A DNA stretch of 64,000 bases, taken from the NCBI GenBank assembly GCA_963762145.1, contig CAVXJS010000011.1:544001-608000 (forward strand), in the 5' to 3' direction. Position numbers and translations under genes: made by a program. Below, piece after piece: positions 17,865 to 19,150 of the stretch. Every line of letters starts with the position of its first letter. Positions within the stretch are counted from its first letter, which is position 1. The notes under the pieces were generated by a model. It saw only the letters and a list, made by a program, of their open reading frames with translations, did no database searches and was not told where the DNA came from. Origin of the DNA: an uncultured Candidatus Rokubacteria bacterium (GTDB taxonomy: Bacteria; Methylomirabilota; Methylomirabilia; Rokubacteriales; CSP1-6).

Positions 17865-18686
17865 ATGGGAACGATCACCACGAAGGACGGCACCCAGATC
17901 TACTACAAGGACTGGGGAAGCGGTCCGCCGATCGTGTTCAGCCATGGCTGGCCCCTGAGCGCGGACGCGTGGGACGATCAGATGCTGTTCCTCGGCGCGC
18001 GCGGCTACCGCTGCATCGCCCACGACCGCCGGGGTCACGGGCGGTCGAGCCAGCCCTGGAGCGGCAACGAGATGGACACCTACGCCGACGACCTCGCGGC
18101 GCTGGTGGAGGCACTCGATCTCAACGGCGCGGTCCACGTCGGGCACTCGACCGGCGGCGGCGAGGTCGCCCGCTACCTGGGCCGCCACGGCACGAAGCGG
18201 GTGGCCAAGGCGGTGCTGATCGGCGCGGTGCCGCCGATCATGCTGAAGACCGCCGCCAACCCGGATGGTCTGCCGATGGAAGCGTTCGATCAGATCCGGA
18301 CCGGCGTCCTCACGGACCGCTCGCAGTTCTTCAAGGATCTCTCCGGGCCGTTCTATGGCGCCAACCGGTCGGGCGCCAAGGTCTCGCAGGGCCTGCGCGA
18401 CTCGTTCTGGCTCCAGGGCATGCTGGCCGGCTTCAAGGGCGTCTTCGACTGCATCAAGGCCTTCTCGGAGACGGACTTCACCGAGGACCTCAAGACGATC
18501 GACGTGCCGACGCTGATCCTGCACGGCGACGACGACCAGATCGTGCCGATCGGCGCCTCCGCGATGCGGTCGGCGAAGCTGGTCAAGAGCGCCACGCTCA
18601 AGGTCTACCCGGGCCTGCCGCACGGCATGTGCTCGACGCACAAGGTGCAGATCAACGCCGATCTGCTCGCGTTCCTCAAGGCATGA
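17865..18686 (+). CDS. cpo: Alpha/beta hydrolase, non-heme chloroperoxidase/perhydrolase family
   Basis: [34 protein letters not shown] nucleophile motif, HGDDDQIVP. Confidence 0.93.
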
Positions 18687-19150
18687 GCGCGCCAATCGCG
18701 AGACGGAGCCTCCTGGTCGGAACCGCGGCCCTCCTGGTCGCCGGCGCGGGCGGACGCCTCGCGGGCGCGGCGGCGAAGCCCACGATCACGGTCCACAAGT
18801 CGCCGACCTGAGGCTGCTGTGCGGCGTGGGTCGGGCACCTGCGCGCGGGCGGTTATCCGGTGACGGCGGTTGACCTCGAGGATCTCGCGCCCATCAAGCG
18901 GAAGCTCGGCGTGCCGCGCGCGCTGCAGAGCTGCCACACCGCGGCGGTCGAGGGTTACGTCATCGAGGGGCACGTCCCCGCCGACCTGATCGACCGTCTG
19001 CTGCGCGAGCGGCCTTCCGTGGTCGGCCTCGCGGTACCGGGCATGCCCGTGGGCTCTCCCGGGATGGAGGCGCCGGGCCAGGCCGCCGATCGCTACCAGG
19101 TGCTCGCGTTCGATCAGAAGGGGCACACCACCGTCTTCGCCAGCCGCTGA
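18683..19150 (+). CDS. DUF411/CopG-family metal-binding protein; probable selenoprotein (in-frame TGA 18809-18811)
   Basis: Continuous frame RRSLL(Tat)...[19 protein letters not shown]...SCHTA...IEGHVPA...[17 protein letters not shown] sits at the first Cys of the family motif KSPTCGCC. Confidence 0.85.
18819..18844 (+). promoter_or_regulatory. Putative bacterial SECIS hairpin
   Basis: GUGCGG-(C bulge)-GUG [GGUCGGG] CAC-CUGCGC pairs by eye, with G:U pairs; loop starts with G 18 nt after the UGA. Confidence 0.5.

Follow-up and report, generated by a model that had tools for sequence, protein, structure and literature searches.

A probable selenocysteine form of CopG (DUF411) encoded by uncultured Rokubacteria

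Introduction

According to a review, CopG is a periplasmic protein of thioredoxin-like fold that holds a tetranuclear copper cluster by means of a CxCC motif and two methionines, and it has been proposed either to oxidise Cu(I) or to pass copper to a multicopper oxidase (PMC7558416). The same review identifies Protein Data Bank (PDB) entry 6WIS as CopG, and the DUF411 protein of 6WIS and 6WJE is the only solved relative of the gene described here. This gene occupies positions 18683..19150 on the + strand of a 64,000-nucleotide stretch (the window) of contig CAVXJS010000011.1, from an uncultured Candidatus Rokubacteria bacterium of the phylum Methylomirabilota. It shares with Pseudomonas aeruginosa CopG its family, the length of the mature domain, an N-terminal export leader, and the xGCC, SCHT and EGHVP stretches. 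Unlike P. aeruginosa CopG, it carries a UGA codon in place of the first cysteine of CxCC, its leader in this lineage carries a twin-arginine motif, and in this phylum it has no multicopper oxidase, copA or cus neighbours. Comparison with its relatives indicates that the gene is intact and very probably encodes a selenocysteine (Sec) form of CopG.

In several respects the locus follows the pattern of bacterial selenoproteins that have Sec/Cys pairs at thiol or metal sites, such as Sec-type SelD and FdhA: the UGA stands at a cysteine position, homologues with cysteine exist, a hairpin lies within the coding sequence just downstream, and selA, selB, selC and selD are present in the genome. Metal-related families are already represented among selenoproteins, and a 2026 review of prokaryotic selenoproteomes tabulates, for instance, the SO_0444 Cu/Zn efflux transporter with a UxC motif (PMC13188914, main text and family table). 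DUF411/CopG does not appear in the selenoprotein lists of those parts of the review, nor in the main text and one supplement of the article on BSepDB, which describes 111 families and subfamilies (PMC13326102). It is likewise absent from the deep-Sep paper (PMC12013277), a 2022 review (PMC9312934) and a 2022 preprint on new families (bioRxiv 10.1101/2022.07.06.499078). Full-text literature searches returned no article joining DUF411 with selenocysteine or COG3019 with selenoprotein, and the listed matches to CopG plus selenoprotein appeared unrelated, as far as their titles and the openings of their abstracts tell. According to the same parts of the 2026 review, candidate new selenoproteins have been reported from groundwater metagenome-assembled genomes (Deng et al. 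2026, Cell Rep; PMC13188914), and that survey could already name the family.

Results

A single reading frame with one internal UGA

The gene reads as one frame of 155 codons, from the ATG at 18683 to a TGA stop at 19148-19150, and its sole internal TGA lies at 18809-18811. Pfam recognises DUF411 (PF04214) in residues 81-128 (18923..19066, + strand) with 96.3 bits against a cut-off of 27 (E 8.5e-28), and the match to 6WIS/6WJE extends across residues 34-153 (E 1.3e-33), with about 45% identity to 6WIS, a match close enough to assign the fold. In this alignment the TGA (18809..18811, + strand), the proposed Sec codon for residue 43, falls on the first cysteine of the CGCC of 6WIS, and SCHT, EGHVP and one stretch of 12 residues are likewise aligned. 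Residues 81-128 contain S-C84-H85-T, E-G-H97-V-P and V-P-G-M121-P-V-G-S-P-G-M128-E, all identical or near-identical in 6WIS; the Cys-His and Met-rich stretches (SCHT, VPGMPxGSPGME), which align identically with 6WIS, are near-invariant in 43 sequences of the phylum. The metal-binding motif is thus present as U-G-C-C, with Cys45-Cys46 (18815..18820, + strand) encoded in the ordinary way, and it is complete only if the TGA specifies Sec. NCBIfam holds no family model for the whole protein.

Open reading frame (ORF) calling breaks the gene into two pieces (17756..18811 and 18860..19150), and the 96-residue downstream piece has been deposited as a separate protein (P0050) in a public protein collection. 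An earlier reading of the window from its letters, made without database searches (the sequence-only reading), had proposed that one frame runs from the ATG at 18683 through the TGA into a DUF411 domain, that the ORF track splits it, and that the neighbouring genes are free of indels. All of this is borne out, the last point by the flanking alpha/beta hydrolase and CoA-transferase III, each of which aligns with almost the full length of its Pfam model. Since the terminator of the gene is itself TGA, this codon has not been reassigned in the genome.

TGA and TGC alternate at codon 43

A six-frame search of related genomes found a homologue in 33 of 61 genomes of the same order and in 65 of the 251 genomes of the phylum, all of which were searched. 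Seventy matches from the phylum span codon 43, and they carry exactly one in-frame TGA in 57 cases and none in 13. Among 45 phylum loci that were fetched and read, the codon at exactly this position is TGA in 36 and TGC in 9, and the TGA loci read U-G-C-C in 34 cases and U-D-C-C in two. Both flanks of the codon are conserved as protein (..TV[HY]K.PT before it and CC..W..HLR after it), the counterpart of Cys45-Cys46 is invariant (45/45), and further stops or frameshifts are absent from all 45 loci. The alternation of TGA with TGC between conserved flanks, which had been put forward as a check of the Sec proposal, is therefore present in the phylum.

The protein collection tells a similar story from metagenomes, containing full-length cysteine forms at most 90% identical to the window protein together with many pieces of 96-109 residues, the product that gene callers make from TGA forms. 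An unrooted maximum-likelihood tree (54 rows) requires six switches of the Sec/Cys label, and well-supported branches force no fewer than three of these; the Sec and Cys forms have therefore been exchanged several times, as happens in established selenoprotein families. The base calls themselves are reproducible, because the contigs X8, X10 and X11, from three independent studies of soil metagenomes, span 18809-18811 with zero differences there, which speaks against a read or assembly error. X15, a contig of an RNA library, spans 18989-19195 and does not extend to the TGA, and it may derive from library DNA.

Three smaller features of the codon and its carriers may be recorded here. The two loci with aspartate in place of glycine after the Sec codon (S-P-T-U-D-C-C; L040 and L041, from genomes G198 and G199) indicate that the second position of the motif is not fixed. 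The threonine codon that precedes the TGA (18806-18808) is ACC in all 32 TGA forms with threonine there, whereas other threonine columns mix ACC and ACG, a bias that could reflect an influence of codon context on the decoding of Sec. Three copies occur in one genome of the same genus (G013; C8:425189, C39:67319, C42:174-516): two are TGA-form paralogues with 84% and 56% identity to the window protein, and the third is fragmentary and has two TGAs.

The TGA form in other lineages

The TGA form extends well beyond this phylum. One genome from each of 185,579 species was scanned for the pattern TGA-GGN-TGY-TGY followed, after 126-156 bases, by GARGGNCAYGTNCC (the EGHVP end), which returned at least 118 stretches, 80 of them listed as loci. 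All but one of the listed loci (79/80) proved to be genuine DUF411 genes, in which the TGA occupies the same place and is preceded by an open frame resembling a leader; the remaining one (L114) was rejected as a chance match to the pattern. The lineages represented among the listed loci are Vicinamibacterales and other Acidobacteriota, Gemmatimonadota, Methylomirabilota/Rokubacteria, Burkholderiales, Binatia, a deltaproteobacterium, Chloroflexota (Anaerolineae, Caldilineales, Ardenticatenaceae) and Actinomycetota (Acidimicrobiia, Microthrixaceae), so that TGA forms come from at least seven lineages other than the phylum. Far from being peculiar to this genome, the TGA recurs in at least 79 further genes elsewhere among the listed loci.

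Selenocysteine machinery

The genome (25 contigs, 88% complete) contains each of the four genes for which the sequence-only reading had called. The genes selA and selB are present and are adjoined by a tRNA-Sec with the anticodon tca, so that selC, selA and selB all lie within 5 kb, and there are two selD genes. In the first selD (contig C11:419505-420437, L003, outside the window) the canonical in-frame TGA stands in the context ..ACAG-U-ASK.., and the hairpin that comes after it is an almost perfect palindrome; the second, on contig C14, is without a TGA. An FdhA-like molybdopterin oxidoreductase (contig C11:727431-728921, L179, likewise outside the window) has a TGA at HQARV-U-HSATV. The leader of this FdhA-like protein has a twin-arginine motif (SRRDFLKYAG), and its gene forms a hairpin 15-33 nt after the TGA.

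Related genomes with the TGA form are similarly equipped, with selA over the cut-off in 21 of 25, and the same gene was found in all five TGA-form genomes examined from five other lineages; these counts take in the unpublished genomes G029 and G243.

A conserved hairpin downstream of the TGA

In the Sec insertion sequence (SECIS) of the Escherichia coli fdhF type, a stem-loop lies some 11-12 nt after the UGA, and G residues open an apical loop that reads GGUC. The probable counterpart in this gene is a hairpin within the coding sequence at 18824..18844 (+ strand), starting 12 nt after the TGA, in which 18824-18831 (GCGUGGGU) pair with 18837-18844 (ACCUGCGC) as a stem of 8 bp around the loop CGGGC (18832-18836). 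It resembles the fdhF type in the distance of the stem-loop from the UGA and in the G's at the start of the apical loop, and it differs in its loop, CGGGC or GGB rather than GGUC, and in the absence of a bulged U from the better supported register; binding of SelB is putative. Its position agrees with that of the other candidate elements of this genome, the hairpin downstream of the TGA spanning nt 16-36 in this gene, nt 17-36 in selD and nt 15-33 in fdhA.

Pairing across relatives and codon use are the evidence for this element. In the reported register 91.8% of cells are paired among 34 TGA forms of the phylum, against 24-65% in slid registers, and 76.7% are paired among 113 TGA forms from all phyla, against 29-55%. 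The larger set contains 38 compensatory cells, a number attained in 0 of 500 shuffles (14.5 +/- 3.3); an example is the change from G-C to A-U that joins the first base of a Val/Met/Ile codon with the third base of a His codon. The TGA group is narrow in its choice of stem codons (Ala GCG 29/29; His CAC 33/33; Leu CTG 31, CTA 3, CTC 0; Arg CGC 31, CGA 2, CGG 0), the loop codons vary (Val GTC 14 and GTG 18; Gly with all four codons), and the TGC group uses Leu CTC in 5/8 and Arg CGG in 7/9 at the stem. RNAalifold returned a 6-pair core only for the 34 phylum sequences. A hairpin is therefore conserved at the canonical distance, with moderate support as a selected RNA structure, and it is probable, from these comparisons, that 18824-18844 is a SECIS element.

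The sequence-only reading had placed a G-led loop 18 nt after the TGA. Such a hairpin (loop GGUCGGG from 18829) does exist as the minimum-energy fold of the window sequence, but that register was rejected, as it fits the relatives less well than the one reported here (81.0% against 91.8% in the phylum, 64.0% against 76.7% in the wide set), and the fold of the single sequence does not stand out from shuffles (see below). The cysteine-form clade of family f4 has a hairpin of its own at this place, and in one member (L028) a change of GAG to GAA is matched by one of CAC to CAT.

Discussion

Weighing the selenocysteine reading

A number of results weigh against this reading or against one of its parts. 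All TGA-form holders found are metagenome-assembled genomes, and in four of the 25 related ones (G005, G017, G018, G029; 78-95% complete) selA, the SelB wing domain and tRNA-Sec gave no match over the cut-off. Loss of one contig would explain the missing selA, selB and selC in these four genomes, because the three genes cluster within 5 kb here, and three of the four contain a selD with an in-frame TGA; the missing genes remain a gap. As for the hairpin, the single-sequence fold gains nothing over shuffles (z 0.29), 116 of 200 of which are equally or more stable, and the gain in stability over synonymous recodings is slight, with a mean z of -0.88 in 34 TGA forms and -0.38 in 9 TGC forms. Four of its pairs are already encoded by the peptide W-V-x-H-L, just one compensatory change occurs within the phylum, several Chloroflexota sequences do not, by eye, form the reported register, and TGC forms also fold into hairpins at this place. 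RNAalifold gave no consensus structure for the wide alignment of 113 sequences, and Rfam, applied to 18600-19200 with E values as high as 10 allowed, returned four weak, chance-level matches and no SECIS family. Of the twin-arginine translocation (Tat) leader that had been proposed from the sequence, the RRSLL motif is there and is common in TGA forms of the phylum, but residues 1-42 give no match to a Tat-signal model in Pfam or NCBIfam at E up to 10. Finally, none of the 125 ORFs flanking 43 related loci within about 1.5 kb matches a copper-handling family.

The simplest alternative is that the TGA is a nonsense mutation, either in a recent copG pseudogene or as a one-base error of sequencing or assembly. 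TGA and TGC do differ by a single base, and gene callers treat the gene as broken, but neither accident would be expected to strike one and the same codon in 36 of the 45 phylum loci and in at least 79 loci elsewhere, with conserved flanks, with no other stops or frameshifts and with agreement between the contigs of three independent studies. The alignments show no neutral evolution of the parts before and after the TGA, and we regard this alternative as extremely unlikely. The ORF callers' own reading implies two products, an exported peptide of 42 residues terminated by the TGA and a DUF411 fragment that starts from the GTG at 18860 and stays in the cytoplasm. That downstream piece would, however, lack the leader together with the first strand and all of the CxCC motif, the internal starts chosen by callers differ among relatives (giving pieces of 96, 103, 106 and 109 residues), and the stretch between the TGA and the internal start is conserved as protein, all of which leaves this reading with hardly any probability. 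A standard amino acid (Trp, Cys or Gly) might instead be inserted at the UGA, by near-cognate decoding or local recoding without selenium. The evidence here is one of sequence rather than of selenium, and the hairpin could in principle promote another kind of readthrough; yet the codon alternates only with cysteine (9/9 TGC), which is the signature of Sec, the full Sec machinery is present in a genome where this gene's own stop is TGA, and the hairpin sits where those of selD and fdhA sit. Readthrough of this kind is accordingly very unlikely.

The alternative that deserves most attention accepts the selenoprotein and questions the copper, making the UGCC form of DUF411 in this phylum a periplasmic selenol/thiol oxidoreductase or a handler of another soft metal such as mercury. 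It gains from the variable neighbours, from the lack of copper genes within 1.5 kb of the 43 related loci, from the MerB-family ORFs beside two TGA-form loci and from the thioredoxin-like fold of CopG (PMC7558416). Against it stand the identity of about 45% to the copper-cluster protein 6WIS, the retention of the CxCC, C-H and Met-rich stretches, and a copper P1B ATPase 3.8 kb away in the window, and we consider it unlikely, if a serious contender. The selenocysteine form of CopG remains the preferred reading: alternation, machinery, conserved hairpin and the agreement of independent contigs all support the proposal, first made from the sequence, that the TGA is read as Sec.

Proposed mechanism and significance

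The mechanism of Sec insertion that we propose is the ordinary bacterial one. The mRNA would present UGA at codon 43, and the hairpin at 18824-18844, 12 nt downstream, would act as a bacterial SECIS element that recruits SelB with Sec-tRNA(Sec), so that the ribosome would insert Sec rather than terminate; the UGA 112 codons past codon 43 would then end the protein normally. The 155-residue precursor, with its twin-arginine type leader, would be exported, and the mature protein of about 125 residues would adopt a thioredoxin-like fold with U-G-C-C where the CopG of Pseudomonas has the C-x-C-C that holds the tetranuclear copper cluster. Sec would thus lie at the metal and redox site, where it might serve as a ligand of greater softness and nucleophilicity or as a more easily reduced redox partner in the periplasmic handling of Cu(I)/Cu(II). 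A bolder extension, which we offer tentatively and think somewhat doubtful, is that Sec ligates a multinuclear copper cluster directly, perhaps as a bridge, in what would be a natural copper-selenolate site; that in this lineage the protein folds, and may also take up its copper, in the cytoplasm before export by Tat; and that the repeated switching between Sec and Cys tunes periplasmic copper redox chemistry to the selenium supply of the soil.

If this reading is confirmed, DUF411/CopG would count as a selenoprotein family, and a common one, among uncultured bacteria from soil, groundwater and marine settings that belong to many phyla. Selenium would then sit at a copper-binding and redox motif, joining the metabolism of the two elements, and bioinorganic study of what selenium contributes to a copper cluster would gain a natural Sec/Cys pair. 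Current annotation reduces every such gene to a 'hypothetical protein' of 96-109 residues without the metal site, and a checkable rule for annotation follows, namely that TGA-GGN-TGY-TGY in a DUF411 frame be read as Sec.

Leader and export

The putative N-terminal export leader, read by eye, comprises approximately residues 1-31 (18683..18775, + strand), in which A-R-R-S-L-L precedes a hydrophobic stretch; the closest relatives keep the N-terminal pattern M-S-x-x-[IL]-A-R-R. A twin-arginine motif of the form RR-x-hydrophobic-hydrophobic occurs in 35 of the 36 TGA forms of the phylum and in two of the nine cysteine forms, which makes export by Tat plausible in this lineage. It is not a property of the whole family: among the 79 listed TGA forms of other phyla, the same motif is found in 18 and a lipobox-like motif in 19, with both in one locus. 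A cysteine-form clade of family f4 (L019, L026, L028, L034, L038) is without the twin-arginine motif, and its leader reads ERSRIAL...

Genomic neighbourhood

The gene is preceded by an amidohydrolase (14946-16277) and by the alpha/beta hydrolase (17829-18686), whose TGA stop shares bases with the start ATG (ATGA, 18683-18686). Downstream are the CoA-transferase III (19197-20393), a Na+/H+ exchanger on the opposite strand (21296-22867) and a P1B ATPase (22927-25236). The ATPase passes the cut-off of the NCBIfam copper subfamily (TIGR01511, 595.5 against 397 bits) and starts 3.8 kb past the end of the gene, in agreement with the copper-type ATPase that had been noted about 4 kb downstream. This CopA-like enzyme has an N-terminal YHS domain and an HMBD domain in place of the usual HMA domains. 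A single operon with the ATPase is unlikely, because the CoA-transferase and the opposite-strand exchanger intervene, and the gene is probably co-transcribed with the hydrolase instead; the ATGA overlap suggests translational coupling with the hydrolase, a gene of unrelated function. The alpha/beta hydrolase stands upstream only in the closest relatives (L010, L011, L015).

Across the 43 related loci the neighbours differ from clade to clade. Since no copper gene adjoins any of these loci, the case for copper handling by this protein comes from its homology to CopG, which points to such a role. Two TGA-form genes, at L039 and L052, have a MerB-family (alkylmercury lyase) ORF beside them, with Pfam E values of 3.9e-15 and 1.6e-14, a hint that some members of the family deal with mercury rather than copper. 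In the cysteine-form clade of family f4, a class B acid phosphatase adjoins five of seven loci.

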